Shown piece after piece: positions 2,656 through 60,307 of a stretch of 64,000 nt of DNA (positions are counted from its first letter, which is position 1; the number at the start of each line of letters is the position of its first letter). This stretch comes from Candidatus Omnitrophota bacterium (GTDB taxonomy: Bacteria; Omnitrophota; Gorgyraeia; Gygaellales; Profunditerraquicolaceae). Location of the stretch: assembly GCA_903852325.1 (NCBI GenBank), contig CAINQO010000035.1, positions 34,117 to 98,116 on the forward strand. Reading direction: 5' to 3'. The notes under the pieces were generated by a model that was not told the origin of the DNA, did no database searches, and saw only the letters and a list, made by a program, of their open reading frames with translations. The position numbers were made by a program, and so were the translations under genes.

Positions 2656-4713
2656 ATGCCTAAAAATTTAGTGATTGTCGAATCGCCGACCAAAGCCAAA
2701 ACCATCAGCAAGATCCTCGGGGATGATTTCAGGGTAGTTTCCTCGATGGGGCACGTCATCGACCTGCCGGCGAAAAAACTCGGGGTCAATGTTGAGGATA
2801 ACTTTACCCCGGATTATGTGGTGATCCCGGGAAAAAAGAAGATCCTGGCCCAATTGAAAAAAGAAGCCAAAGGAAAAGAAAATATTTATATCGCGACTGA
2901 CCCTGACCGGGAGGGGGAAGCGATCGGCTGGCAGATAAAAGAAAAATTATTCAAGGGTAAAGAAGTCAAGCGGGTCAGTTTCCATGAGATCACCCCGCAC
3001 GCGGTGGCGGAATCTTTTAAAAACGCCAGGGAGTTCGACCTGGAAATGATCCAGGCCCAGGTCGGCCGCCGGGTGCTGGACCGGATGGTGGGTTATTTTC
3101 TGAGCCCTTTACTCTGGAAGAAGCTTGCCCGGGGATTAAGCGCCGGCAGGGTGCAGTCTGTGGGATTGAGGCTGATCGTGGAGAGGGAGCGGCAGATCCA
3201 GGTTTTTGTGCCCAGCGAATATTGGCAGATCGGCGCGGAATTATTCAAGCCCCAGGTGTCCGGGGAGAGCGGTTTTTCCGCGGAACTGGAGAAGATCGGC
3301 GGCGAGAAAGCGCAAATCAAAAACGGCGGCCAGGCCAAGGAGATCTGCGAATTTTTGCGGGATAAAGAATTTAAGGTTCAGGGAGTGAAGAAGTCGGAGA
3401 AGAAGCGTTACCCGCCCGCCCCGTTTATTACCAGCACGATGCAACAGGAAGCGTTCAATAAATTAAGGTTCAACGCCTCCAAAACCATGTTGATCGCCCA
3501 GCAGCTTTACGAAGGGATCGATATCGGCGAGGATAACCCGGTGGGTTTAATTACTTATATGCGTACGGATTCTCCGCATGTCGCCGCCGAAGCGATCCAG
3601 GAGGTGCGCGAGCATATCGGCAGAAGTTTCGGCAAGGATTTTGTCCCGGAGAAGCCCAATGTTTTTAAAGCGAAGAAATCCGCGCAGGAGGCGCACGAAG
3701 CGATCCGCCCCAGCTATGTCTCCCGGAGCCCGGAGAGCCTTAAGGATTTTCTCAATCACGACCAGATCCGGCTTTATACGTTGATCTACAACCGTTTTTT
3801 GGCCAGCCAGATGAAACCGGCGGAGTTCTTAGCGACGGCGGTAGACATCCTGGCGGATAAATATTTATTCGCGGCTAACGGCAGCCATTTGCTTTTTGAG
3901 GGTTTTCTCGCCGCTTACAATAAAGAGGAGGAGGGGGAGGAAAAAGACGAGGAAGAGGAAAAAGAAAAAGATAAGAATAAAAATGTAATTCCTCCTCTGG
4001 AGCAGGGTGAGGTGCTGGGCTTAAAGGGGTTGAATCCTTCGCAGCATTTTACCAAGCCTCCGCCCCGGTATTCGGACAGCTCTTTGATCAAGGCGCTGGA
4101 AGAAGAGGGGATCGGCAGGCCTTCAACCTACGCCCCGATCATTTATACGATCATTTTGCGCGATTATGTGCGCCGGATCAAAGGCTACCTTAATCCTTCC
4201 GAGCTGGGTTTTAAGGTCAATGACCTTTTAGTGGAATACTTCCCCAAGATCCTCGACTTGAAATTTACCGCCGCTATCGAGGAGCAGCTGGATGAGGTGG
4301 AGGAAGGTAAATTGAGCCGGATAAAAGTGCTGGAAGATTTTTACCAGCCGTTTAAGGAAAGCCTGGATTTTGCCCAGGCCAACATCGTCAAGGAAGTGAT
4401 CACTACGGACCAGGTATGCGATAAATGCGGCAAGCCCTTGATCGTGAAGTGGGGCAGGCGCGGAAAATTCTTGAGCTGTTCCGCTTTTCCGGAATGCAAG
4501 AACTCCAAATCGATTACCTCCGGGGTCAAATGCCCGCTGGAAAATTGCGGAGGTGAGCTAATCGAGCGGCGCTCAAAGCGCGGATTTTTCTACGGCTGCT
4601 CGAATTTCCCCAAGTGCACGTTTACTTCGCGTAATTTACCGGATGACAAGGATGAGGCGGAGAAAAAACCCGAAGCACAGCCTGAAGCTAAACCAGAGGA
4701 TAAACAAGAATAA
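2656..4713 (+). CDS. topA: DNA topoisomerase I
   Basis: Toprim start LVIVESPTKAKTI, the YMRTDS active-site region, and two C-terminal Cys4 zinc ribbons. Confidence 0.95.
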   Translation: MPKNLVIVESPTKAKTISKILGDDFRVVSSMGHVIDLPAKKLGVNVEDNFTPDYVVIPGKKKILAQLKKEAKGKENIYIATDPDREGEAIGWQIKEKLFKGKEVKRVSFHEITPHAVAESFKNAREFDLEMIQAQVGRRVLDRMVGYFLSPLLWKKLARGLSAGRVQSVGLRLIVERERQIQVFVPSEYWQIGAELFKPQVSGESGFSAELEKIGGEKAQIKNGGQAKEICEFLRDKEFKVQGVKKSEKKRYPPAPFITSTMQQEAFNKLRFNASKTMLIAQQLYEGIDIGEDNPVGLITYMRTDSPHVAAEAIQEVREHIGRSFGKDFVPEKPNVFKAKKSAQEAHEAIRPSYVSRSPESLKDFLNHDQIRLYTLIYNRFLASQMKPAEFLATAVDILADKYLFAANGSHLLFEGFLAAYNKEEEGEEKDEEEEKEKDKNKNVIPPLEQGEVLGLKGLNPSQHFTKPPPRYSDSSLIKALEEEGIGRPSTYAPIIYTIILRDYVRRIKGYLNPSELGFKVNDLLVEYFPKILDLKFTAAIEEQLDEVEEGKLSRIKVLEDFYQPFKESLDFAQANIVKEVITTDQVCDKCGKPLIVKWGRRGKFLSCSAFPECKNSKSITSGVKCPLENCGGELIERRSKRGFFYGCSNFPKCTFTSRNLPDDKDEAEKKPEAQPEAKPEDKQE

Positions 4714-14598: not shown

Positions 14599-14664
14599 AG
14601 GAAGGGCGGATTGAATCCCGCCCTTCCTCAGCGATTTAAGTTAGCAAAGGAAGGGTTGGGATGA
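14599..14664 (+). promoter_or_regulatory. three-arm SD-copy / anti-SD / SD switch with short uORF upstream of the GT4-GT9 gene
   Basis: AGGAAGGGCGG (14599-14609) pairs with CCGCCCTTCCT (14618-14628). The same middle arm can instead pair with AGGAAGGGTTGGGA (14648-14661), which holds the SD and the A of ATG 14661. The uORF runs from TTG 14611 to TGA 14664. Confidence 0.55.
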
Positions 14665-16754
14665 AGATTTTACAAATTTTGCCGGAACTTAATGTCGGAG
14701 GGGTAGAGACCGGGACGGTGGACCTTTCCCGTCATCTGGTGCGCCTGGGGCATAAATCGGTGGTGGTTTCCGCCGGCGGAGCGCTGGTCAAAGAACTGGA
14801 GGAGGCGGGGGCTAAACACTATCAACTGCCGGTAAATAAAAAATCCATCATCTCCATGATCAAGCTGGTTCCGGAGTTAGCCGAAATTATCAAACGGGAA
14901 GGGATCGAGATCGTACATGCCCGCTCAAGGGCGCCGGCCTGGATCGCTTATTTTGCCTGCCGAAGGACCCAGGCGGTATTCGTTACCACTTGCCACGGTT
15001 ATTACCAGAAACATCTTTTTAGCGCGGTAATGGGCTGGGGCAAAAAAGTGATCGTTTTAAGCAACGTGATCGCCCGGCACATGATCGAGGATTTTGCCGT
15101 TCCCCATGAGCGGATCAAGCTGGTGCCGCGCAGCGTGGATCTGGAGAAATTTAAATACCGGGACCCTAAAAACAAAAGGAAAGAAGATTTTAATGTCGGT
15201 ATCATCGGCCGGATCACCCCGCTAAAAGGGCATTTGCATTTTATCAAAGCCATGGCACGCATTTCCCGCTCCGTCCCGCGCCTGAAGATCTGGATCGTCG
15301 GCGATGCTCCGGCTTCCAAGGAAGCTTATAAAGAAGAACTGCAAATTTTAGTGCGCCGCCTGGGTTTATGGCATTGCACGGAATTTCTGGGCACGCAGCG
15401 GGATATTCCGGGAATATTGGAGAACCTGGATCTGGTGGTTTTAGCCACGACTACTCAGGAGGCCTTCGGCAGGGTGGTTGTAGAGGCGCAGGCCTGCGGG
15501 GTACCGGTGGTGGCGACCAGGGTCGGAGGGGTGATCGATATTATCGAGGACGGCAAGAACGGGCTCCTGGTCCCTCCGGCGGATTCCAAAAGCATGTCGG
15601 AGGCGGTGATGCGTATTTTTAAGGACGCGGAATTCGCCCGCATCCTGGCGGAAAATGCCTACGCTAAGGTCAAAGAAAAATATAATGTGGAATTGATGGT
15701 CAAAAATACTTTAGAGGTTTACCGGGAGGCGCTGAATAATTTTAAGATCCTGGTGATCAAGCTCAGTTCTTTAGGGGACGTGATCCTTTCTACGGCGGCC
15801 TTAAGGGCGATCCGGGAAAAATTTCCCCAAAGTAAATACAAGATAAGTTTTCTGGTCGGGGAAGAATCCAAGGACCTGCTTTTGCGCTGCCCGTATATCG
15901 ACGAACTTCTGGTTTGCGACTTAAAAAATAAGGACCGCGGCCCCTTCGGTTTGCTGAGGATGGGTCAGCTTTTACGGAAGAAAAATTTCGACTCGGTGAT
16001 CGATCTGCAAAATAGCCGTTCCAGCCACCTGCTGGCTTATCTGAGCGGTTGCGTCCACCGCTACGGATATGACAATAAAAAGTTTTCCTTTTTGCTCAAC
16101 TACCGGATCCAGGATCAAAAAACCCCGCTGGACCCGGTAACCCACCAGTTCAGGATCCTTAAGCTGCTGGGGATCGACCTGTTGAATAATGCCCTTGAGC
16201 TTTGGCCTTCCGCGGAAGACCGGGAGAAGGTGGAGGAACTTTTTAATTCCCAATGGTTGAGCCAGGTGCAGAAAGTGGTGGGGATCAATATCAGCGCTTC
16301 CTCCAGATGGGAGACAAAACTCTGGCCGCTGGAATACGTGATCACCCTGTGTGAAGAACTGGAAGCCAGGGATATCCGGGTGGTCATTACCGGTAAGCAA
16401 GAGGATCAGCCGCGCGCCAACATGCTCGTCGATTCGCTTAAGAACACCAAGGTGATCAATGCCTGCGGCAAGACCAATATCAACGAATTGGCGGTGTTGA
16501 TCAAAAAATGCAATGTGTTCATCTCCGCCGATTCTTCTCCTTTGCATATCGCTTCCGCGGTGGGCACTCCTTTTGTCGCTTTGTTCGGCCCGACGGATCC
16601 TTTGCGGCACCTTCCCCCCGGGGCTAATTACGCGGTGATCGATAAGAAATTGAATTGCAGCCCTTGTTATAAAAATAGATGCCGCAGTAAGCGCTGCATG
16701 ATCGAGATCGATCCGGCGCAGGTTTTTGAAGCGGTAATGAAGTTATTGAAATAA
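14661..16754 (+). CDS. fusion glycosyltransferase: GT4 (N-terminal) plus GT9 heptosyltransferase-like (C-terminal)
   Basis: The N-terminal half has a GT4 E(x7)E-type region (EAFGRVVVEAQACGVPVV). The C-terminal half starts FKILVIKLSSLGDVILS and ends with GPTDP...CSPC, typical of GT9. Confidence 0.8.
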   Translation: MKILQILPELNVGGVETGTVDLSRHLVRLGHKSVVVSAGGALVKELEEAGAKHYQLPVNKKSIISMIKLVPELAEIIKREGIEIVHARSRAPAWIAYFACRRTQAVFVTTCHGYYQKHLFSAVMGWGKKVIVLSNVIARHMIEDFAVPHERIKLVPRSVDLEKFKYRDPKNKRKEDFNVGIIGRITPLKGHLHFIKAMARISRSVPRLKIWIVGDAPASKEAYKEELQILVRRLGLWHCTEFLGTQRDIPGILENLDLVVLATTTQEAFGRVVVEAQACGVPVVATRVGGVIDIIEDGKNGLLVPPADSKSMSEAVMRIFKDAEFARILAENAYAKVKEKYNVELMVKNTLEVYREALNNFKILVIKLSSLGDVILSTAALRAIREKFPQSKYKISFLVGEESKDLLLRCPYIDELLVCDLKNKDRGPFGLLRMGQLLRKKNFDSVIDLQNSRSSHLLAYLSGCVHRYGYDNKKFSFLLNYRIQDQKTPLDPVTHQFRILKLLGIDLLNNALELWPSAEDREKVEELFNSQWLSQVQKVVGINISASSRWETKLWPLEYVITLCEELEARDIRVVITGKQEDQPRANMLVDSLKNTKVINACGKTNINELAVLIKKCNVFISADSSPLHIASAVGTPFVALFGPTDPLRHLPPGANYAVIDKKLNCSPCYKNRCRSKRCMIEIDPAQVFEAVMKLLK

Positions 16755-16806: not shown

Positions 16807-16894
16807 AGGGGCGGGATGACCCCGCACCATCTTCTAATTCACGCTTTAAGTCCTAAGGTTTAATAACAATTAACTATAAGGATGGTGCGGGGTG
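16807..16894 (+). promoter_or_regulatory. anti-SD/SD hairpin module upstream of the GT4 gene (degenerate uORF)
   Basis: CCCCGCACCATCTT (16820-16833) pairs with AAGGATGGTGCGGGG (16879-16892) over 14 bp including one G-U. The GTG start is at 16892. Confidence 0.55.
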
Positions 16895-17992
16895 CGGATT
16901 TTATTTTTAGCCAATCATCTTAATGTCGGGGGGATCTCCAGTTACTTGCTGACCTTGGGTAGCGGATTGAAAGAAAAAGGGCATGAGGTTTATTTGGCCT
17001 CCGGGGGCGGTGAATTAGAGGAAAAATTCCGGCAGGCCGGAATAATCCTGATCAATGTCCCCTTGAAAACAAAAAGCGAGATCAGTCCGAAGATCCTGAT
17101 CAGTTACTGGAAATTAAAAAAGGCCGCTGCCGGTTTGCGGATCGAGCTTATTCATTCGCACAGCCGGACCACCCAGGTTTTGGGATGCTGGCTGGGCCGC
17201 TCCCTGGGCAGGCCGCATATTTTTACCTGCCACGGTTTCTTTAAACCGAAACTGCCGCGCAAGGTTTTCGGCTGCTGGGGCCAAAGGGTAATTGCTATCA
17301 GCTCCCAGGTCAAAGAGCACTTGACCGCGGATTTTAAATTCAGCGAAAATAAGATTAGCGTGATCCATAACGGCATCGACACGCAAAAATTCGGGGATTT
17401 TTCGGGAAGGGACCGCTTGCGCAGCAGTTTAGGGGTCGCCCCGGATGGTTTTTTGATCGGGATCATCGCCCGCCTCTCCGATGTGAAGGGGCATCTTTAC
17501 CTTATCCGGGCGATGCCGGAGATTTTAAAAAAATTCCCCGGGACCAAATTAGCGATAATCGGTCAGGGTAAGACCGAAGGCTCTTTGGTCAAAGAAACAG
17601 GGAATTTAGGGTTAGAGGGCAATATTTTATTTGTCCCGGAAGCAAAAGATACCCGGGAATGGCTTTGCGCCATGGATGTTTTTGCCATGCCTTCGCTGCA
17701 GGAAGGCTTGGGGCTGGCTTTGATGGAAGCGATGGCTCAGGGTTTAGCCGTGGCCGGATCGGCGGTAGGGGGGATCAAAACCCTGGTCCAGGATAAAATT
17801 ACCGGACTGCTGGTCCCGGCGCGGGATGCGGGGGCGCTGGCGCAGGCGATCATCTCTTTGCTTGGGGATCCGGATTTACGCCGTAATTTAGGGGATCAGG
17901 CGCGCGAATTTATCGCCGCTAATTTTTCTAAAAAAGAAATGGTGGAAAAGACCGAAGGCCTTTACCGGCAGGTTTTAAATCCCAATGAGTGA
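16892..17992 (+). CDS. GT4 family glycosyltransferase
   Basis: MRILFLANHLNVGGISSY start and a C-terminal EGLGLALMEAMAQGLAV motif. Confidence 0.85.
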   Translation: MRILFLANHLNVGGISSYLLTLGSGLKEKGHEVYLASGGGELEEKFRQAGIILINVPLKTKSEISPKILISYWKLKKAAAGLRIELIHSHSRTTQVLGCWLGRSLGRPHIFTCHGFFKPKLPRKVFGCWGQRVIAISSQVKEHLTADFKFSENKISVIHNGIDTQKFGDFSGRDRLRSSLGVAPDGFLIGIIARLSDVKGHLYLIRAMPEILKKFPGTKLAIIGQGKTEGSLVKETGNLGLEGNILFVPEAKDTREWLCAMDVFAMPSLQEGLGLALMEAMAQGLAVAGSAVGGIKTLVQDKITGLLVPARDAGALAQAIISLLGDPDLRRNLGDQAREFIAANFSKKEMVEKTEGLYRQVLNPNE

Positions 17993-21127: not shown

Positions 21128-21144
21128 GTTGAGGAGTGGGGATT

Positions 21145-21247
21145 GGGTCGAGTAGTGGGATAGGTAGTGCGGGTGAGTTGTGGGGTAGACCAACTACTAA
21201 TCCACACAACCTAACGCACTACTTTACCTAACCCACACTACTCACCC
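21145..21247 (+). repeat. imperfect long hairpin with a GT-rich arm and an AC-rich arm (AGTAGTG / GGGTTAGG motif family)
   Basis: Arm 21145-21188 versus arm 21194-21247 share the blocks GAGTAGTG, TAGGT, AGTGCG, GTTGTG and GTAG. The element is related to 58420-58490. Confidence 0.5.
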
Positions 21248-21276
21248 TATGCTCGATTTTGGCTATCCAGTAATGC

Positions 21277-21315: not shown

Positions 21316-22245
21316 ATGATCAACTTAAAGAAGGTTAAAAGATATTCGCTTAAAGCCCGTTTAAGCAAGGTAAATAAGGGGGATTTTGCCCTTAAACCGG
21401 CTAAAGGCAGGAGTTTTTCCGTTTTTTTTGACTCCTTACCTAATATTTTAAAAGCCAAAGATTTACGCTCGGTTTCTGCCGATATTATCGCGGCGCGCCG
21501 GAAAAATAAAGGGGTGATTTTAATGGCCGGGGCCCACGTGATCAAGTGCGGGCTTAATCCGGTTTTGATCGAGTTGTTGGAAAAAAAAGTGATTACCTGT
21601 ATCTGCCTTAACGGGGCCGGATTGATCCACGATTTTGAGATCGCCTACCAGGGGAAGACTTCGGAAGATGTGGCCGCCAACCTCAAAGACGGGAAATTCG
21701 GGATGGGGATCGAGACCGCGGATTTTATCAACGCCGCGGTCAAAGAAGGGACTGAGGCGGGCTTTGGATTAGGTTATGCCTTAGCCAATAAAATGGCCGG
21801 GGCAGCTTTACCCAATAAAGATCTAAGCCTGATTTATAATGCCTATAAGCGTAAAATCCCGGTTTGTGTTTTTGCGGCGATCGGTACGGATATAATCCAT
21901 CAGCACCCTTCTTTCGACGCTGCGGCAACCGCCGTGGGCTCATTGCGGGATTTCCATATCCTGGTGGAGAGGATCCGCTCCTTGAATCAGGGGGGAGTGG
22001 TTTTAAATTTCGGCTCCGCGGTGCTTTTGCCTGAAGTATTTTTAAAGGCTTTGAACCTTGCCCGCAACCTGGGCAGCAAAGTGAAAGATTTTACTTCCGC
22101 TAATTTCGATATGATTTACCAGTACCGCGCGGCACAGAATGTAGTGAGCCGTCCCACCGCTTCCGGGGGTAAAGGCTATTATATTATCGGTCACCATGAG
22201 ATCATGCTGCCGCTTTTAGCCCAAAGTATATTGGAAAAAATCTGA
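21316..22245 (+). CDS. deoxyhypusine-synthase-like (DHS-fold) family protein, function unknown
   Basis: MAGAHVIKCGLNPVLIELLEKKVITCICLNGAGLIHDF and IPVCVFAAIGTDIIHQHP resemble DHS-family blocks; this is a by-eye call only. ATG 21316 is preferred over the track's TTG at 21277. Confidence 0.45.
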   Translation: MINLKKVKRYSLKARLSKVNKGDFALKPAKGRSFSVFFDSLPNILKAKDLRSVSADIIAARRKNKGVILMAGAHVIKCGLNPVLIELLEKKVITCICLNGAGLIHDFEIAYQGKTSEDVAANLKDGKFGMGIETADFINAAVKEGTEAGFGLGYALANKMAGAALPNKDLSLIYNAYKRKIPVCVFAAIGTDIIHQHPSFDAAATAVGSLRDFHILVERIRSLNQGGVVLNFGSAVLLPEVFLKALNLARNLGSKVKDFTSANFDMIYQYRAAQNVVSRPTASGGKGYYIIGHHEIMLPLLAQSILEKI

Positions 22246-22317
22246 CCCCGCACCTTCTTCGTATTCGATCTGAAGGTCAGGGGTAAAAAATAGTTAATAA
22301 TAGGAAGGTGCGGGGTG
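22246..22317 (+). promoter_or_regulatory. anti-SD/SD hairpin module between the DHS-like gene stop and the heptose kinase start
   Basis: CCCCGCACCTTCTT (22246-22259) begins directly after the TGA stop (22243-22245). It pairs over 14 bp with AGGAAGGTGCGGGG (22302-22315). The GTG start is at 22315. Confidence 0.6.
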
Positions 22318-23328
22318 AAGAACCTAAAAGAGATTGTCCGCAAATTCAAGCGGGCTAATATTTTGGTCGTCGGAGACCTGATCCTGGATGAATACATCTG
22401 GGGCGCGGTGGAGAGGATCTCTCCGGAGGCTCCCGTGCCGGTGCTTTGGGCCAACAAACGTACTTTTGTTCCCGGGGGCACCGCTAACGTGGCCAATAAC
22501 ATCGGCTCCTTCGGGGCAAAAGTGACTCTTTTGGGGGTCACCGGTTCCGACGCGAACTCCAAGATTTTGCTGGGCGAATTAAAGAAGAGAAAGATCGATA
22601 CGCGGGGTATTTTTGTCGAAAAAAATCGGCACACTACGGTCAAGACGCGGATCCTGGCCGGGCATCAGCAGGTAGTCCGGGTGGATTGGGAACATACCCA
22701 TGATCTGTCTCAAGAGTTAAACGATAAGATTTTAAAATTCATCCAGAAGAATATCGATGATTTCGACGCGATCATTATCGAGGATTACGGCAAAGGGGTA
22801 ATCAATGTCCCGCTCTTGAAAACGCTGATCGCTTTGGCGAAAAACCATAAAAAAATCATTACCGTTGATCCGAAAGAGGAGAACTTTCAGTTTTATCGGT
22901 CGGTAGATTCGATCACTCCTAACCGCAAGGAGCTGGAAAACGCGATAAGGAATTTGAAGATCCAGGACACGACCAACGGTTTCAAGATCAATACGGATAA
23001 ACTCTTTACGGATAAGGATGTGGACCGGGCTGCCCGGGAGATCCTGGAATACCTGCGTCTTGATTCTATTCTGGTTACCCTGGGGGAGCACGGGATGAAA
23101 CTTTTGGAAAAGAACGGCCGCCTTACCCATATTCCCACGGTAGCCCAGGAAGTTTTCGATGTTTCCGGCGCGGGGGATACCGTAATCAGCACCTTTACCC
23201 TGGCTTTAAGCGTGGGCGCTTCCAAATTAGAGGCGGCGCACATCGCCAATTTTGCCGCAGGGATAGTGGTAGGTAAATTGGGCACGGCAGTGACCAACAC
23301 TAAAGAACTATTAGAAAGGATTAAATAA
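22315..23328 (+). CDS. hldA: D-glycero-beta-D-manno-heptose-7-phosphate kinase (RfaE domain I type, stand-alone)
   Basis: ILVVGDLILDEYIWGAVERISPEAPVPV and the PfkB C-terminal motif DVSGAGDTV. No adenylyltransferase domain is present. Confidence 0.85.
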   Translation: MKNLKEIVRKFKRANILVVGDLILDEYIWGAVERISPEAPVPVLWANKRTFVPGGTANVANNIGSFGAKVTLLGVTGSDANSKILLGELKKRKIDTRGIFVEKNRHTTVKTRILAGHQQVVRVDWEHTHDLSQELNDKILKFIQKNIDDFDAIIIEDYGKGVINVPLLKTLIALAKNHKKIITVDPKEENFQFYRSVDSITPNRKELENAIRNLKIQDTTNGFKINTDKLFTDKDVDRAAREILEYLRLDSILVTLGEHGMKLLEKNGRLTHIPTVAQEVFDVSGAGDTVISTFTLALSVGASKLEAAHIANFAAGIVVGKLGTAVTNTKELLERIK

Positions 23329-24881: not shown

Positions 24882-24899
24882 ACTTTAATAAGGTGCGGG

Positions 24900-27403: not shown

Positions 27404-28106
27404 GGGCCTGGCTAAATCCTATGACGGTCGCTGGGTGGTTAAGGGCGTGGATATCACGGTCAAGCGCGGGGAGATCGTCGGGCTTTTAGGCCCCAACGGA
27501 GCCGGCAAGACTACTACTTTTTATATGATCGTCGGGATCGTCCCCCCCAACAAGGGCACGATCGTTTTTGATAACCATGAAATCACCCGGATGGCGATCC
27601 ACGAGCGGGCGCGTTTCGGGATCGGCTATCTTGCCCAGGAACCCTCGATATTCCGGAAACTGACCGTGGAAGAAAATATCAACGCGATCCTGGAGACTTT
27701 GCCTTTGAGCCGCGCGCAGAGAAAAAACCGGCTGGCGTTTTTGCTGGAGGAGTTGAATATCGCGCACCTGGCAAAGCATAAAGCCTACACTTTAAGCGGC
27801 GGAGAGAGAAGGCGCCTGGAGATCACCCGGGCGCTGGTGACCAATCCTTCTTTTATCCTGCTGGATGAACCTTTCAGCGGGATCGACCCGATCGTCGTCA
27901 ATGAAGCGCAGGAGATCATTAAGGAATTAAAGGCCAAAGGCCTGGGTATTCTTTTGACCGACCATAATGTGCGGGAGACCCTGGCGATCACCGACCGGGC
28001 GTATTTAATTTCCGAAGGGGCGATCCTTATTTCCGGATCCGCGGAGGAGCTGATTAATCACCCTCAGGCCCGCCAGGTTTATTTAGGTGAGAAGTTTAGG
28101 ATGTAA
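27384..28106 (+). CDS. lptB: LPS export ABC transporter ATP-binding protein
   Basis: Walker A is GPNGAGKTT, the signature is [11 protein letters not shown] and Walker B is ILLDEP. The C-terminus is YLGEKFRM. Confidence 0.95.
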
Positions 28107-28248
28107 CCCCGCACCTTCTTCTGTATTCGGAAGAAAAACGGATTGATTAAAGGCGCGGGACAATAATAACCATGGTCATTTCTTTAAACATCAAGGTTCA
28201 AAGCTTAGATGCAGGGAATGATATAATTAAGAAAGAAGGTGCGGGGTG
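28107..28248 (+). promoter_or_regulatory. anti-SD/SD hairpin module (109-nt loop) between the lptB stop and the tig start
   Basis: CCCCGCACCTTCTT (28107-28120) begins directly after the TAA stop. It pairs perfectly over 14 bp with AAGAAGGTGCGGGG (28233-28246). The GTG start is at 28246. Confidence 0.6.
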
Positions 28249-29133
28249 AAAACCGAAGTTAAGAAATTAGACGGAACTAAACGTGAAATTAATGTCGCCG
28301 TGACCGGCGACTTGGTCAAAAATAAATTTGAAGAAGTTTTCGCACAGGTCGCCAAAGAAGCCAAGGTCCCGGGTTTTCGCCCGGGAAAAGCGCCCCGGGA
28401 TCTTCTGGAAAAGCATTACGGTTCCAGCGTCCATGAGCAGGTGTTAAAGGAGCTGGTCCCGGATGTGTATAACCAGGCGGTCGCGGCGGAAAAACTCGAT
28501 GTCATTGAGCTGCCCCAGATCACCGATGTGCAGCTGGATCGGGCCAGCCTTTCTTTTAAAGCGGTCGTGGAGGTCAGCCCGGAAATTACGCTGAAGAATT
28601 ATAAAAACCAGGTAATTAATTATAAGCTGCCGGTTGTTTCCGCGGATGAAGTGAAACGCCAGATCGACTCGGTCAAGGAATCGCGTAAGGCCGAAAACCT
28701 GGATGATAAATTCGCCCGCTCCCTGGGTTATCCTGATTTAGGGGAATTGGAAAAAGCGGTGGAAAGACAGATCTTTCTTACCAAGGAGAATCAGGAACGC
28801 CAGCGGATTGAAAATGAATTAATCGAAAATATTACCAAAGGGGTGGAATTTAAGCTGCCGCAAGGATTGGTGGACCGGCAGGTTCAGGATATGCTGCGGC
28901 AGACCAAGATCGATTTGGCGATGAAAGGGCTGCCCCGGGAGAAGATCGACGCGCAGGATAAATTGCTTTTAGAGGGGATCGAACCGGAAGCAAAAAAGCA
29001 GGTCAAGATTTACCTGATCCTGGCGCAGATCGCGAAAAAAGAGAATATCGCCATCGACGACCATATGCCGCGCAAGGTGATGGAGTTTCTGCTGGGTGAA
29101 GCAGAGTGGAAGGCTGCACAAGAGAATAAATAG
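28246..29133 (+). CDS. tig: trigger factor-like chaperone lacking the PPIase domain
   Basis: The N-terminal ribosome-binding signature GFRPGKAP is present. The C-terminal arm domain follows directly, giving 295 aa versus about 430 for canonical TF. Confidence 0.8.
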   Translation: MKTEVKKLDGTKREINVAVTGDLVKNKFEEVFAQVAKEAKVPGFRPGKAPRDLLEKHYGSSVHEQVLKELVPDVYNQAVAAEKLDVIELPQITDVQLDRASLSFKAVVEVSPEITLKNYKNQVINYKLPVVSADEVKRQIDSVKESRKAENLDDKFARSLGYPDLGELEKAVERQIFLTKENQERQRIENELIENITKGVEFKLPQGLVDRQVQDMLRQTKIDLAMKGLPREKIDAQDKLLLEGIEPEAKKQVKIYLILAQIAKKENIAIDDHMPRKVMEFLLGEAEWKAAQENK

Positions 29134-29266
29134 CGGTATTCATGTTGATTAGCTCCGCGCCTAAGCCTTGGATGTTACGCTTAGCATATATTCGAATATT
29201 GTAACGCGCGGAGTAAATTAAAAATTACCACTTATTATAAATAATTTTAAATTTAAGGAGGCAAAA
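29131..29266 (+). promoter_or_regulatory. structured leader/repeat upstream of clpP (copy 1 of 2)
   Basis: About 90 nt are shared with 55531-55645. The 8-bp stem CTCCGCGC/GCGCGGAG (29153-29160/29206-29213) encloses hairpin CTAAGC/GCTTAG and the palindrome ATATTCGAATAT. Confidence 0.55.
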
Positions 29267-31076: not shown

Positions 31077-31090
31077 ATTTAGAGAAAGAG

Positions 31091-31220
31091 CAAATCCTAG
31101 GCACTAAATCCTAAACTCTAAACAAACTCAAAAAATTTAAACTCAAAACCCGAAACATGGGTTTGGAGTTTTGGATTTTGGATTTGTTTAGGATTTAGAG
31201 TTTAGTGTTTAGAGTTTAGA
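31091..31220 (+). repeat. inverted pair of heptamer tandem arrays forming a long imperfect hairpin
   Basis: The left arm is built of CTAAAYY-type 7-mers (31091-31151). The apex is AAAACCC-gaaacat-GGGTTT. The right arm is built of TTTAGRR/TTTGGAK 7-mers (31159-31220). Confidence 0.5.
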
Positions 31221-31240
31221 ATAATAATGAGGGGTGAGAG

Positions 31241-35804: not shown

Positions 35805-35852
35805 ATATCGAACGAGAGAGTAGTTAGCAGGCTGAATGCGGGTTAGTTAACA

Positions 35853-37198
<1,346 letters not shown>

Positions 37199-50239: not shown

Positions 50240-52546
50240 ATGCCCAAAACAAAAAAAGAAAAACCCCCGGTAGAAAAAACAGCTAAACCTAAAAAAACCG
50301 CGGCCAAGGAAGCAGCTAAGCCTAAGGCGGTCAAAGCGGCCAAGCCTAAACCTTCCGCAGTAAGGGCGGTCAAGGAAAGTAAGCCAAGCCCGAAGCCGGT
50401 ATTTAAATCCATGCTTAAACCGGGGCCAAAGCCTGATTTTAGGCCCCTGGTTAAAACTCAGATTAAGCCGGTGGTAAAACCTGAAATCAAGCCGGAAATA
50501 AAGCACGAGGTTAAGCCGGCAATAAAACCCGAACTCAAACCCGAGCATAAGCCTGAAGTTAAGCATGAAATTAAGCATGAGGTAAAGCACGAAGCAAAGC
50601 ACGAAGCAAAGCACGAGGTGAAGCCTGAAATTAAACATGAGGTAAAACCGGAAACGAAATCTGATATAAAACCTGAGGTTAAAGTTGCGCATAAGCCGGA
50701 AGTTAAGGCTGAGCATAAGCCGGAAGTTAAGGTTAAAGTTTCGGCCCCGGTTCCGGTTGTTCCTGTCGAAGTTAAGGCTCCGGCGGCCCCAGAAAAAGAG
50801 ATTGAGCTGGAATTGCCGATTACCGTTAAAGATTTGGCCGTAAAATTGCAGGAAAAATCTTCAATCCTCATCAAGCACCTTATGGGGATGGGGATAATGG
50901 TGGGGATCAATCAGCCCCTGGACGAAGTTTCTTTAAATAAATTATGTTTAAAATATAATTTCAAAGTAAAAAAAGCGCTTAATGCCGAAGAGATAGTTTT
51001 GCAGGCGCACAGTAAAATAGACAAACCCCAGGATAAAAAGACCCGCGCTCCGATCGTCACCTTTATGGGGCATGTTGATCACGGTAAAACTTCTCTTTTG
51101 GATGCGATCCGTAATACTAAAGTAGCGGATAAAGAGCACGGAGGGATCACCCAGCATATCGGCGCCTACCGGGTGCAACTTCCCCAGGGGGAGATCACTT
51201 TCCTGGATACGCCGGGCCATGAAGCGTTTACCGCGATGCGCGCCCGCGGCGCCAGGATCACCGATATCGTGGTTTTAGTCGTCGCTGCGGATGACGGGAT
51301 TATGCCCCAGACGCAGGAAGCGATCGATCATGCCAAAGCCGCGCAGGTCGCGATCATTGTGGCGGTCAATAAAATCGATAAGGCGCAGGCAAATTTGGAT
51401 ATGGTCAAAAAACAGCTGGCCGCGGCCGGTTTAACTCCCGAGGATTGGGGAGGTAAAACCATTACCGTGCCGGTTTCGGCAAAGACCGGAGCGGGGATCG
51501 ATACCCTGCTGGAAATGATCCTGCTGCAGGCGGAAATGATGGAATTAAAGGCCAATCCTGACCGGTTGGCCAACGGAGTGGTAGTGGAAGCCAGGATGGC
51601 CAAAGGCCGGGGCCCGGTCGCCACCCTGCTTATCCAGAACGGAACTTTGCATCTTAATCAAAATATAATCGTCGGCAATCTTTACGGAAAGATCCGGGCG
51701 ATGCTTAATGACCGGGGGCAGGGAGTGACCGCGGTAGGGCCGGGAACTCCGGTAGAAATTTTAGGCATCAGCGGGATTCCTCAGGTAGGGGAGCAATTTT
51801 TCGCGATCGAAGATGAAAAGCAGGCCAAAGAATTGATCCAGGCGCGCCAGGAAAAAGAAAGGATCGCCCAGGTCAAGGAAGTAAAAAGGGTTAATCTGGA
51901 AGAGCTGCATGCCCAGATTGCCGCCGGTGAGATCAAGGAATTAAATTTGATTATCAAGGCCGATGTTCAGGGATCCCTGGAGGCGATTAAAGATACCCTG
52001 GAGAAATTGAATGTCTCTGAGATAAAGATCAATATCCTCCACATGGCTGCCGGCAACATCAATGCCTCCGACGTGATTTTAGCGGTAGCTTCCGATGCCC
52101 TGCTGGTGGGGTTCAACGTTTTATCCGATGAGCCGGCCAAGGAGCTGATCGCCAAAGAAAAGATCGAGGTAAAGATATACAACATTATTTATGAGCTGGC
52201 CAACGATATAAAAGCGGCGGTGGAAGGAATGCTTGACCCGAGGTTAAAGAAAATATTTTTGGGCCGGGCGGAAGTCAGGAAAATGTTCAAGCTTTCCCAT
52301 TCCGGAATTATCGCCGGCTGCATGATTACCAAGGGCAAGATCAACCGCCACTGCCAGGTTACCGTAATGCGTAACGGGGATGCGATTTTTGAAGGCAAAA
52401 TTTCCAGCCTCAAACGGTTTAAGGATGATGTCCGCGAGGTAGGGGAGGGTTTTGAATGCGGTATCGCCATCGGCGGTTTCGACCAATTAGCCGAAGGGGA
52501 TATCATTGAAGCCTACGATATCGAGAAAATAGCCAGGAAGCTGTAA
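50240..52546 (+). CDS. infB: translation initiation factor IF-2 with a repetitive K-(P/H)-E-x N-terminal region
   Basis: The G-domain motifs are [17 protein letters not shown] and NKID. The N-terminal 12-nt-period repeats span about 50430-50745. Confidence 0.95.
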
Positions 52547-52566: not shown

Positions 52567-53550
52567 ATGAATAAGAAGCGGATATTAAGCGGAATGCGTC
52601 CGACGGGCAAGCTGCACCTTGGGCACCTGGTGGGGGCGCTTTCCAACTGGATCAAGCTGCAGGATGAATACGACTGTTTTTTTATGGTGGCGGATTGGCA
52701 CGCGCTGATGTCGGAGTACGAAAATCCGGCTGAGCTTAAGGCGAACATGCTGGATAATGTGCTGGATTGGCTGGCCTGCGGGATTGACCCGGGAAAATCG
52801 GTGATTTTTATCCAGTCGCAGATCCCGGAGCATCTTGAGCTATATTTTATCCTTTCCCTGATCACCCCCCTGGGGCTGCTTGAGCGCTGCCCTACTTATA
52901 AGGAACAACTGCGCCAGGTAACCAACCGGGATTTAAGCACCTACGCTTTTTTAGGTTATCCGGTATTGCAGGCCGCCGACATCCTGCTTTATAAAGCCGA
53001 TAGCGTACCGGTTGGAGAGGATCAATTGCCGCATTTAGAGCTGACCCGCCAGATCGCGCGTAAGTTCAACCATATTTATAAAACAGATTGTTTTTCCGAT
53101 CCCAAGGCCTTGCTTACCCAGACTACCCGGCTTTTGGGTTTAGACGGCCGCAAGATGAGCAAGAGTTATAATAATTACATCGCTATTTCCGAGGCGCCGG
53201 AAGTGATCCGTAAAAAAGTGCAGGGGATGTTTACCGACCCGGCGCGCATCCGGGTCACCGACCGGGGGCATCCGGAAAAATGTAATGTTTATTATTATTA
53301 TGAAGCTTTTTTCCCCGAGATAAAAGACAAGGTCCATGACCGTTGTGTTAATGCCCAGATCGGCTGCACGGAATGCAAAAAAGAACTGGCGGACCGGTTG
53401 ATCGGATTATTGGCGCCTATTCAGGAAAAAAGGAAGGCTTTGGAAAAAGATAAAAAGTATATTCAAGAAATTTTATCCGTTGGACGGGAAAAGGCCGACC
53501 TTTCAGCCAAAAAAACCATCGCCCAGGTCAAAGGGCTTTTAAAGATATAA
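52567..53550 (+). CDS. trpS: tryptophanyl-tRNA synthetase
   Basis: SGMRPTGKLHLGH (HIGH-type motif) and KMSKS are both present. Confidence 0.95.
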   Translation: MNKKRILSGMRPTGKLHLGHLVGALSNWIKLQDEYDCFFMVADWHALMSEYENPAELKANMLDNVLDWLACGIDPGKSVIFIQSQIPEHLELYFILSLITPLGLLERCPTYKEQLRQVTNRDLSTYAFLGYPVLQAADILLYKADSVPVGEDQLPHLELTRQIARKFNHIYKTDCFSDPKALLTQTTRLLGLDGRKMSKSYNNYIAISEAPEVIRKKVQGMFTDPARIRVTDRGHPEKCNVYYYYEAFFPEIKDKVHDRCVNAQIGCTECKKELADRLIGLLAPIQEKRKALEKDKKYIQEILSVGREKADLSAKKTIAQVKGLLKI

Positions 53551-53719
53551 AGGAAGGGCGGGATGAACCCTGCATTTTCTTGTTATTCAATATTAAAGTC
53601 TTAGGAATTTGATGATTAAACAGAAGGAAGGTGCGGGGGTGAATCCCGCTCCTTCTAATTGTTCAATGCTAAAACCCATACGTTTTAAAGAATTCAATAA
53701 GAAAGAAGGAGCGGGATGA
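53551..53719 (+). promoter_or_regulatory. tandem (about 2.5 copies) anti-SD/SD hairpin modules with two uORFs between trpS and scpA
   Basis: The arms lie at 53551-53562, 53568-53582, 53621-53639, 53644-53656 and 53704-53716. The last pair is a perfect 13-bp helix covering the SD GAAGGAG and the A of ATG 53716. Confidence 0.6.
53639..53719 (+). CDS. candidate 26-aa leader peptide (uORF2); its stop overlaps the scpA ATG
   Basis: The frame GTG 53639 to TGA 53717-53719 encodes (V/M)NPAPSNCSMLKPIRFKEFNKKEGAG. It is preceded by an SD copy GAAGGTG and is homologous to the uORF at 35853-35933. Confidence 0.35.
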   Translation: MNPAPSNCSMLKPIRFKEFNKKEGAG

Positions 53720-54489
53720 ATTATAAAATCCGCTTAGAGATGTTTGAGGGGCCCTTAGACCTGCTGCTTTACCTGGTCAAGAAAGACCACCTGAATATCT
53801 ACGATATCCCCATCGCCAAGGTCACCCAGCAATACCTGGAATATATCAACCTGATGCAGCTTTTGGATTTGAATGTGGTCGGGGAGTTTTTGGTGATGGC
53901 GGCGACCCTGATGCAGATAAAATCCAAGATGCTTCTTCCGGCGGAGGAGTTGGCCGCGCAGGAGGAGGAAGAGGATCCGCGCGCTGAGCTGGTCAAGCGG
54001 CTTTTGGAATATGAAAAATTCAAACAGATCGCCGAAAATTTAAAACAGCGGGAAGCCAGCCAGCAGGAAGTTTTTAAACGCCCCAAGACCGAGACCCCGC
54101 AGGAGCTGCAGGTGCAGGATAAGGAAGAGGAAAAGTATTTTGAAGCCAGCATTTTTGACCTGATCGATGCCTTTTCCCGGGCGATCAAAGACATCCCCCG
54201 GGAAGTTTTTTACGAAGTGATTAAGGATCAGTTTACGGTCGAGCAGAAGGTGCATGATATTCTGCATTTATTGCTGGTAGAAACAAAAATCAAGCTTTCG
54301 GATCTTTTCTCCAAGAGCAAGGGCAAGCTAGAGATCATCGCCATATTTTTGGCGATCCTTGAGCTGGCGAAAATGAAGGAGATCCTTGCCCGCCAGGACG
54401 CCGATTTTGCCGACATTATCATTATCCGCAACAAGGAAAACATAATCCCTTATGAACGAAGAGACCAGACACCCGCTGCTGAAGGCTAA
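53716..54489 (+). CDS. scpA: segregation and condensation protein A
   Basis: FEGPLDLLLYLVKKDHLNIYDIPIAKVTQQYLEYI N-terminus. Confidence 0.9.
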   Translation: MNYKIRLEMFEGPLDLLLYLVKKDHLNIYDIPIAKVTQQYLEYINLMQLLDLNVVGEFLVMAATLMQIKSKMLLPAEELAAQEEEEDPRAELVKRLLEYEKFKQIAENLKQREASQQEVFKRPKTETPQELQVQDKEEEKYFEASIFDLIDAFSRAIKDIPREVFYEVIKDQFTVEQKVHDILHLLLVETKIKLSDLFSKSKGKLEIIAIFLAILELAKMKEILARQDADFADIIIIRNKENIIPYERRDQTPAAEG

Positions 54490-55504: not shown

Positions 55505-55645
55505 ATTAACAATTGCCACTGATTATAATAGGTAGTGGTTGAAAGCGTCGAACTAAGCCTATAGGTTACGGTTTATATATATTCGAATATTGAAACGTTC
55601 GACGTAAATTAAAAATTACCACTGATTATAAACAATTTTTAATTT
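55505..55645 (+). promoter_or_regulatory. structured leader/repeat upstream of queH (copy 2 of 2)
   Basis: The 8-bp stem CGTCGAAC/GTTCGACG (55546-55553/55597-55604) compensates for the copy-1 stem. It carries the same ATATTCGAATAT palindrome and the AAATTAAAAATTACCACT tail. It is flanked by direct repeats AATT(G/A)CCACTGATTATAA (55511-55528 and 55614-55631). Confidence 0.55.
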
Positions 55646-58408: not shown

Positions 58409-58419
58409 ATAATTTTGGT

Positions 58420-58490
58420 TTAGTAGTGAGGGTTAGGCTAGGCAGTGTGTTAAGTAGTGGGGTTGGGTAGTGGGTAATACTCACTACTAA
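58420..58490 (+). repeat. GT-rich stem-loop of the AGTAGTG / GGGTTAGG motif family
   Basis: A perfect 11-bp stem TTAGTAGTGAG/CTCACTACTAA (58420-58430/58480-58490) encloses a 49-nt G/T-rich loop. Positions 58421-58454 match the reverse complement of 21210-21247 at about 27 of 34 positions. Confidence 0.5.
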
Positions 58491-58517
58491 TACATTTCTG
58501 AATTTTAGGGTTAATAA

Positions 58518-60307
<1,790 letters not shown>

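Follow-up and report, generated by a model that had tools for sequence, protein, structure and literature searches.

The 165-base spacer between trpS (encoding tryptophanyl-tRNA synthetase) and scpA (encoding segregation and condensation protein A), which lies in a 64-kb stretch of DNA (hereafter the window) from an organism placed in Candidatus Omnitrophota, is best explained as a tandem array of a short mobile element. In this reading, to which we assign a probability of roughly 0.7, a non-autonomous Omnitrophota element resembling MITEs (miniature transposable elements with inverted repeats) would have entered the scpA start codon, and ribosomes passing through the inserted copies would restore the coupling of trpS and scpA. 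Its two parts differ in strength: tandem insertion of a mobile element into an ATGA junction is very likely, and a selected translational relay, as judged from sequence patterns, has about even odds. Comparison with relatives further suggests that the ancestral junction was an overlap of the trpS stop with the scpA start (..AAAATATGAATTAT..), and that the spacer is transposon-derived and neither a conserved nor an ancestral regulator of scpA.

The original prediction, drawn from the DNA letters, had described the spacer as 2.5 tandem copies of a module that forms a relay from the trpS stop through two small upstream open reading frames (ORFs), uORF1 and uORF2, to scpA. This copy number is a fair description, as the spacer holds two full units and a right-end fragment (Table 1); the units are old, with inner parts that share 64% identity. 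The sequence agrees with the predicted Shine–Dalgarno (SD) copy directly behind the trpS TAA, with the 13-codon uORF1 that opens after it, and with a 26-codon uORF2 that starts at GTG 53639 and whose TGA overlaps the scpA ATG (ATGA). Also borne out were the perfect pairing of the unit 2 arms, where positions 53643–53656 and 53704–53717 form a 14-nt inverted repeat with 100% complementarity, and the G-U-rich pairing of the unit 1 arms (9 Watson–Crick and 3–4 G-U pairs). Unit 2 is flanked by TGAA on both sides (53640–53643 and 53717–53720) and is matched by the covariance model of the element at 53637–53723 with 84.6 bits; the match to unit 1 (53570–53636) scores 34.3 bits. The fragment at 53551–53562 is missing in L202 and L203, relatives with two units only, and is the leftover of a third unit that has mostly been deleted. 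An ATG at 53612, in frame with GTG 53639, lies 7 nt past the uORF1 stop, so that the ORFs tile the whole spacer with gaps of at most 12 nt, and uORF2 traverses the left arm of unit 2 before reaching its TGA. A Pfam search with the small-ORF peptides returned no family. A public 612-kb contig whose scpA is identical has a 35-aa gene called at the equivalent of 53609–53719 (locus coordinates 2897–3004), and its product corresponds to uORF2 with a TTG/ATG extension. A repeat search of the find_repeats type detected a 76-nt period (71% identity) and found the SD-plus-start segment repeated at 153 nt (84%); Tandem Repeats Finder reported no array in 53300–54000 because the units are too diverged.

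The minimum free energy structure of the 53540–53730 RNA consists of two long hairpins side by side (−56.5 kcal/mol, z −4.7, equalled by 0 of 200 shuffles). Taken alone, unit 2 folds with −31.5 kcal/mol (z −6.9) and unit 1 with −24.7 kcal/mol in the sense strand (z −3.9), compared with −12.5 kcal/mol in the antisense strand. Local hairpins between an SD copy and the anti-SD arm that follows it, which had been put forward as alternative folds, do exist, but at −13.8 kcal/mol (53545–53590) and −21.2 kcal/mol (53615–53662) they are weaker than the long-range stems, and the pair of long hairpins is more stable than the alternative folds by about 20 kcal/mol.

The original prediction had named comparison of the spacer in related genomes as a check, and conservation is not what this comparison revealed. 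Of 80 representatives of Omnitrophota species, 34 have a trpS stop that directly overlaps the scpA start (..AAAATATGAATTATAAA..) and 28 a gap of 0–10 nt between the two, together 62 of 80. The element sits exactly at the scpA ATGAA in eight species, and three carry other inserts. Filled trpS|scpA sites are spread over at least 4 or 5 separate branches of the scpA tree, which implies that the junction has either been hit repeatedly or been cleanly vacated many times. Two tandem units are also present in L027 and in L202 and L203, the nearest relatives by exact-protein look-up. Filled and empty states occur at three orthologous junctions. Besides trpS|scpA, these are infB|trpS, where L013 and L082 have the insertion and the window lacks it, and the junction upstream of the heptose-7-phosphate kinase gene, where the window and L205 carry the insertion and L204 and L206 show the empty site with an ATGA overlap. 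The empty site carries a single TGAA. The trpS|scpA junction serves as a hotspot for different element families. In L201 (1369–1505), a different 123-nt hairpin element (−44.4 kcal/mol) occupies the same ATGAA, with ATGAA flanking it on both sides. A CCTGCCTGC(C)GGCAGGCAGG palindrome lies just upstream of scpA at this junction in L017 and L059, in L017 within a remnant of the element.

A scan of metagenomes for the two arms, in which the variable base was left free, returned at least 118 stretches. The matches listed include 98 unique oriented copies, on which the flank, length and terminal-base figures given here rest. The element measures about 73 nt and is bounded by terminal inverted repeats of 13–14 nt, (C)CCCGCNCCTTCT and AGAAGGNGCGGG(G), with a core of 59–89 nt and a mode of 71 nt. 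Its right arm, AGAAGG(T/A)GCGGG, is an SD sequence positioned 4 nt ahead of the start, with the exact anti-SD as the left arm. The bases at the two termini covary (C..G in 68 copies, T..A in 24), so that the regenerated start is either GTG or ATG. The left flank reads A-T-G-A-A at 84–92% per position, and its counterpart in the spacer, the ATGAA at 53563–53567, is a copy of the target's old start codon; the right flank reads TGAA at 91–100% per position. The copies are flanked by a 4-nt direct repeat, mostly TGAA, which consists of the TG of the host start and the next two bases. Rare flank tetranucleotides match on both sides (TGAG in five copies, TGCG in two and TGTA in one; also TCAA, TTGA, TTAA, TAAA and TGGA), which points to a true 4-nt target-site duplication and not to a fixed element end. 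Pairing holds in 95.8% of arm cells, and in 11 of 13 pairs both sides have changed, compared with 0 of 500 shuffles; whole variant arm sets, such as CCCGTTACAAA / TTTGTAACGGG, are fully compensated. The only ORFs inside the element are leaders of 13–35 codons without a Pfam match. Certain copies sit away from start codons, for which reason a preference for TGAA/ATGAA, together with survival only where the SD and start of the element rescue the gene, is the best explanation of the start-codon bias.

In the window itself, a list of all intergenic regions combined with a covariance-model search revealed seven loci of the element (Table 1). These copies have a common plan: a stop or xTGA(A), (C/T)CCCGCNCCTTCT, an A+T-rich inner part, AGAAGGNGCGGG(G/A) and the TG of the host start; the inner parts have motifs in common. 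As several copies stand ahead of unrelated genes, a device specific to scpA is ruled out. One subfamily carries an inner decoy of the right arm (GAAGG(T/C)G.(A/G)GG) about 25–40 nt past the left arm, which is found at 22270–22282 and 28149–28159 and in many metagenome copies, among them L134, L183 and L168. Such a decoy offers the anti-SD a nearer alternative partner and would leave the real SD free.

Table 1. Genes, small ORFs and copies of the element in the 64-kb window.
Feature	Position	Strand	Remarks and source
trpS (tryptophanyl-tRNA synthetase)	52567..53550	+	TAA stop 53548–53550; ORF list; Pfam PF00579 on identical gene
Half copy, solo right arm, SD-like AGGAAGGGCGGG	53551..53562	+	SD for ATG 53563; 84% identity to right end 53702–53720
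uORF1, 13 codons (MNPAFSCYSILKS)	53563..53604	+	ATG 53563; truncated by TAG 53602–53604; codons 2–6 are the left arm of unit 1
Element unit 1, decayed	53568..53639	+	Left arm 53568–53581; right arm (SD2) 53625–53638; last G gives GTG 53639
uORF2	53612..53719	+	ATG 53612 or GTG 53639 (26 codons), same frame; TGA 53717–53719 overlaps scpA ATG 53716
Element unit 2, intact, 73 nt	53644..53716	+	Left arm (anti-SD) 53644–53656; right arm 53704–53716 (scpA SD AAGGAG)
scpA (segregation and condensation protein A)	53716..54489	+	ORF list; PF02616
Two tandem units, trpS–scpA spacer	53570–53723	+	Covariance model
Canonical copy, 71-nt core	35851..35937	+	88.3 bits; 26-codon small ORF ends in GTGA overlap
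Copy upstream of heptose-7-phosphate kinase gene	22239..22322	+	Covariance model; left arm begins right after upstream TGA
Copy with AT inserted in both arms (CACCATCT / GATGGTG)	16814..16899	+	65.2 bits
Long copy, 127-nt arm spacing	28100..28253	+	Covariance model; right-arm decoy inside at 28149–28159
Short variant copy, arms CCCGCCCTTCCT / AGGAAGGGTTGGG	14609..14668	+	28.5 bits; solo right arm ahead of it; small ORF with TTG start ends in ATGA overlap
Solo right arm (AATAAGGTGCGGG + ATG), without left arm	24882..24899	+	Intergenic listing

Several family-wide signatures point to translation through the element. The organism uses SD sequences: an SD-like 5-mer is present ahead of 28 of 61 genes, compared with 10.6 at random positions. 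In the frame of the old ATG, the stop-codon rate is 0.048, versus 0.130 and 0.120 in the other two frames, and this frame is free of stops in 46 of 85 copies, whereas shuffled sequences gave 14.7 ± 3.3 and at most 28. Core lengths at 85 independent host loci leave a remainder of 2 upon division by three in 50 cases, of 1 in 22 and of 0 in 13 (p = 2e-6); without the modal 71 nt, 31 of 66 are of the 3n+2 type (p = 0.015). With such a length, the small ORF runs onto the TGA of xTGA, and it indeed ends exactly in this overlap at 36 of the 41 loci that combine a left start with a 3n+2 length (36 of 85 overall), with leader peptides of the form MNPAPS-x-(K)KEGAG. Among 39 copies that were not selected by their arms, arm mismatches are of the G-U type in 20 cases and of the A-C type in 2 (p = 6e-5; counted by copy, 10 versus 2, p = 0.019). 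Unit 1 of L202 retains 13 of 13 pairs, seven of them G-U, with no mismatch, and unit 2 of the window differs from the units of L202, L203 and L028 by a compensated change of A:T to T:A, by which the SD is improved to AAGGAG. Arm pairing thus seems to be under constraint on the mRNA strand. Third codon positions in 25 gap-free 71-nt copies are slightly more variable than the others (1.25 versus 1.03–1.04 bits), an excess too slight for us to claim selection on the peptide sequence itself.

The proposed course of events is as follows. The element would insert in a start codon and duplicate TGAA, and its last base, G or A, would rebuild a GTG or ATG. Each insertion would thereby recreate the target xTGAA, where later copies could land again. 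At trpS–scpA, three insertions may have occurred, of which the first was cut down to its right arm, the second decayed and the third stayed intact. In the relaxed mRNA, SD2 and the scpA SD would each be locked in a long stem, with the first SD copy (SD0, 53551–53562) left free. Ribosomes that finish trpS, or that load on SD0, would start at ATG 53563 and unwind the left arm of unit 1 within six codons. After the uORF1 stop at 53604, they could restart at ATG 53612, or new ribosomes could load on the freed SD2 and start at GTG 53639. Translation of uORF2 would then unwind the left arm of unit 2 and open the second hairpin, and termination at TGA 53717–53719 would take place on top of the scpA ATG, with the scpA SD (AAGGAG, 4 nt upstream) now accessible. 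The net outcome would be that scpA is kept translationally coupled to trpS, as in the ancestral overlap. Extended to the whole family, the element may represent a mobile translational-coupling cassette that targets start codons and ATGA overlaps and combines SD and anti-SD repeats, a rebuilt start and an open leader ending in xTGA; we regard this generalization as tentative, at slightly less than even odds. If it holds, insertion would be nearly free of cost, which would explain tandem stacking in the regenerated target.

A number of observations weigh against this account. An alignment of the inner parts of the 98 listed copies placed 62 in forward and 2 in reverse orientation relative to the host gene (34 ambiguous). 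Such near-uniform orientation is unusual for a cut-and-paste element with symmetric ends and would need strand-specific targeting or selection. Covariance-model strand scores were dropped as a test of orientation, as the modelled flanks drive the difference. Dominance of TGAA means that most copies, on their own, cannot separate a duplication from a part of the element. The search for an autonomous partner with the ends (C)CCCGCACCTTCT...AGAAGGTGCGGG(G) yielded 29 arm pairs spaced 250–6000 nt apart in about 1.9 Mb, which point to no transposase; most simply, these pairs are combinations of neighbouring small elements, the intervening sequence not having been inspected. About 40% of copies, including unit 1 of the window, contain an internal stop or have a length other than 3n+2, so that a complete ORF relay is not obligatory. 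The reverse complement shows similar stop depletion, and the open frame may be a property of master copies and not of each host locus. Decay of C to T in the left arm could partly reflect strand-biased deamination instead of selection, and at two free positions in the pattern-selected set, G-U (5) and A-C (4) mismatches are balanced. The two-arm pattern had 0 matches in viral contigs.

The main competitor of this account, which we consider unlikely, is that the tandem MITE insertions are neutral transposon debris. The hairpins and small ORFs would then have no role, and scpA would be translated from its own SD as the structure breathes, or from a separate transcript. That the element is clearly insertional fits this explanation, as do the decay of unit 1 with its truncated ORF, the 40% of the family without a complete relay ORF, and inner parts with identities down to 55–70%. 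Debris would leave unaccounted for, however, that stop depletion is specific to the frame of the old ATG, that lengths are biased towards 3n+2, that arm mismatches favour G-U over A-C by 20:2 and that the arm change in unit 2 is compensated; moreover, a stem of −31.5 kcal/mol over the SD and start would silence scpA unless it is opened. A somewhat smaller chance falls to the idea that the same family is moved not as a classical staggered-cut MITE but by a single-strand or strand-specific system, be it an IS200/IS605-like palindrome-associated transposable element (PATE), a REPIN/RAYT-like sequence or another site-specific system. The strong tetranucleotide target, the orientation bias of 62:2 among the matches listed, the fact that the entire element is a hairpin and an asymmetry tolerant of G-T, which could mean one active DNA strand, would all suit such a mode. 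A right-end cleavage site carried by the element would not predict that eight rare flank tetranucleotides agree on both sides, though, and the ends are true terminal inverted repeats, not separate left-end and right-end hairpins, without a GTAG or CGTC tag. REPIN–RAYT membership as such was rejected because the ends read (C/T)CCCGC..., with no GTAG or CGTC, and the arms are not self-palindromic (REP, repetitive extragenic palindromic sequence). Likewise rejected was a PATE of the IS200/IS605 type, as the flanking repeats vary in concert and the two ends pair with each other instead of forming hairpins of their own; the orientation bias among the matches listed is the sole feature resembling that group.

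Two further explanations assign the spacer a regulatory role of another kind. Transcript-level functions, in which the hairpins would be intrinsic terminators, would stabilise the 3′ end of the trpS mRNA in a REP-like fashion or would serve as RNase III sites that uncouple trpS and scpA, appear improbable. Three weak terminator-like matches are present in 53300–53900, versus 0.9 ± 1.0 expected, two of them on the plus strand (53558–53573 and 53635–53653), and RNase III substrates and REP-like stabilisers are typically long perfect stems, as found here. Yet the terminator-like stems have only 5–7 bp, and GTGAAT and ATGAATTATAAA, not a U-run, come after the long hairpins, for which reason an intrinsic terminator was rejected; such functions would also leave unexplained why the element sits at start codons and regenerates a start, why its right arm holds an SD, why stops are depleted in a specific frame and why lengths are of the 3n+2 type. 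Least probable is the reading favoured by the original prediction, a multi-step switch dedicated to scpA, in which alternative SD/anti-SD pairings would sense a signal and set scpA translation. The local and long-range pairings are mutually exclusive, and some family members have the inner right-arm decoy, both as a switch would have it. The comparative data largely refute it: the spacer is missing at the junction in 72 of 80 related species, the same module precedes unrelated genes, and three junctions occur in filled and empty form. In addition, the module contains no conserved core of the ligand-binding kind (the inner part is 55–70% identical), has no Rfam match and would rely on folds weaker by about 20 kcal/mol. 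Rfam gave 0 matches at the gathering threshold for the whole window and, with permissive E-values on the spacer, only a chance match to a plant miRNA model (18.9 bits, E = 0.32); a tRNA/tmRNA scan found none. A T-box or Trp-leader attenuator for trpS was also rejected, as the structure is found downstream of trpS, with leader peptides that are not rich in Trp. The original prediction is therefore partly supported: the architecture stands, and the hand-over of ribosomes through the spacer, which fits the family-wide signatures, probably does as well, but not a switch built for scpA.

With regard to known mobile elements, tandem insertion of a MITE-like sequence is the reading that the anatomy favours. 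The element is small and has no room for a transposase, it has terminal inverted repeats and a target-site duplication, and its dispersed copies vary in presence and absence; it thus has all testable features of bacterial MITEs, and an autonomous partner is not among the finds. Bacterial MITEs that are co-transcribed with genes, such as Correia elements of Neisseria, ERIC/RU-1 of enterobacteria and RUP of pneumococci, are likewise short and free of transposase, with inverted repeats, a short target duplication, many dispersed copies, presence or absence among relatives and a long hairpin within mRNAs (PMC3184786). They differ from the Omnitrophota element in that the latter targets start codons and ATGA, has SD and anti-SD sequences as its repeats, rebuilds the start with its last base and keeps the old start's frame open in its body. 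Neisseria REP2 and the Borrelia IR sequences also lie directly upstream of genes and provide a ribosome-binding site as well as an initiation codon (PMC3184786). REP2, in contrast to the Omnitrophota element, is without terminal inverted repeats and brings a promoter, and the descriptions of REP2 and Borrelia IR in the same source mention no target duplication, anti-SD partner or stop/start overlap. In the literature searched, we found no account of an element combining these properties, nor of any SD/anti-SD MITE.

Open frames in small mobile palindromes have precedents, as the palindromic elements of Rickettsia carry such frames and become part of the host protein. The RU-1/2/3 sequences are likewise small palindromic mobile sequences with open frames, so that insertion in translated regions is tolerated (PMC2759123). 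They join the host protein, whereas in the Omnitrophota element the open frame forms a leader ORF of its own, whose stop overlaps the host start in xTGA. In functional terms, the closest analogue appears to be SD-sequestering coupling hairpins together with the synthetic bicistronic design (BCD), which, in the portions of the cited reports considered here, likewise use a leader with a second SD inside and a stop that overlaps the next start (10.1101/2023.02.09.527918, PMC7538156). In BCD, according to the part of the report cited, the translating ribosome acts as a helicase that opens structure near the downstream start (10.1101/2023.02.09.527918). The same architecture is found in the element, where the SD and the start's first base lie in the right arm, the left arm forms codons 2–6 of the small ORF or begins 1–2 nt past the upstream stop, and xTGA provides the overlap. 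As far as those portions go, coupling hairpins and BCD are fixed operon features or engineered parts, whereas the Omnitrophota cassette is repeated, inserted and apparently mobile, and its function is deduced from sequence. IStrons, group I/II introns and inteins are, in the sections cited, also mobile and keep their cost low, as they undo the effect they have on the host product (PMC4227781, PMC3073962). They do so by RNA or protein splicing, whereas the neutralisation proposed for the Omnitrophota element would act at translation initiation or re-initiation.

If the proposed mechanism is true, the element would be a mobile sequence that neutralises its own insertion at translation initiation and not by splicing, and thereby a natural, transposable counterpart of the engineered bicistronic leaders used for context-independent expression. 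It would also explain how repeated insertions at gene junctions are tolerated in the tightly packed operons of small-genome uncultured bacteria. As a part, it would be compact, with anti-SD, open leader, SD and start in 73 nt. For annotation, GTG starts that follow GGTGCGGG and ‘hypothetical proteins’ of 26–35 aa in Omnitrophota are probably derived from the element. For scpA, the spacer does not count as an ancestral regulator of chromosome-condensation genes.

Other repeats were noticed alongside the element. A second palindromic family, with motifs of the TAGTGGG.../...CCCACTA type, is represented at 21128–21276 and 58409–58520; the former is a near-perfect hairpin of 149 nt (−62.4 kcal/mol, z −5.2), and sequences like it fill the infB–trpS spacers of L202 and L203. 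A third hairpin repeat with TTTAGAGTTTAG-like motifs is located at 31077–31240 (−49.1 kcal/mol, z −6.8), and a similar element is present at infB|trpS in L201. The intergenic regions 29134–29266 and 55505–55645 have about 90 nt in common, including long identical blocks (..ATATATTCGAATATTG.AACG....GTAAATTAAAAATTACCACT.ATTATAAA..), and each lies upstream of a gene starting with ATGGATATT; they may represent a duplicated promoter or leader, or another repeat. Finally, the IF2 gene (50240–52546) encodes a long N-terminal low-complexity region with repeats of the KPE(V/I)K type.

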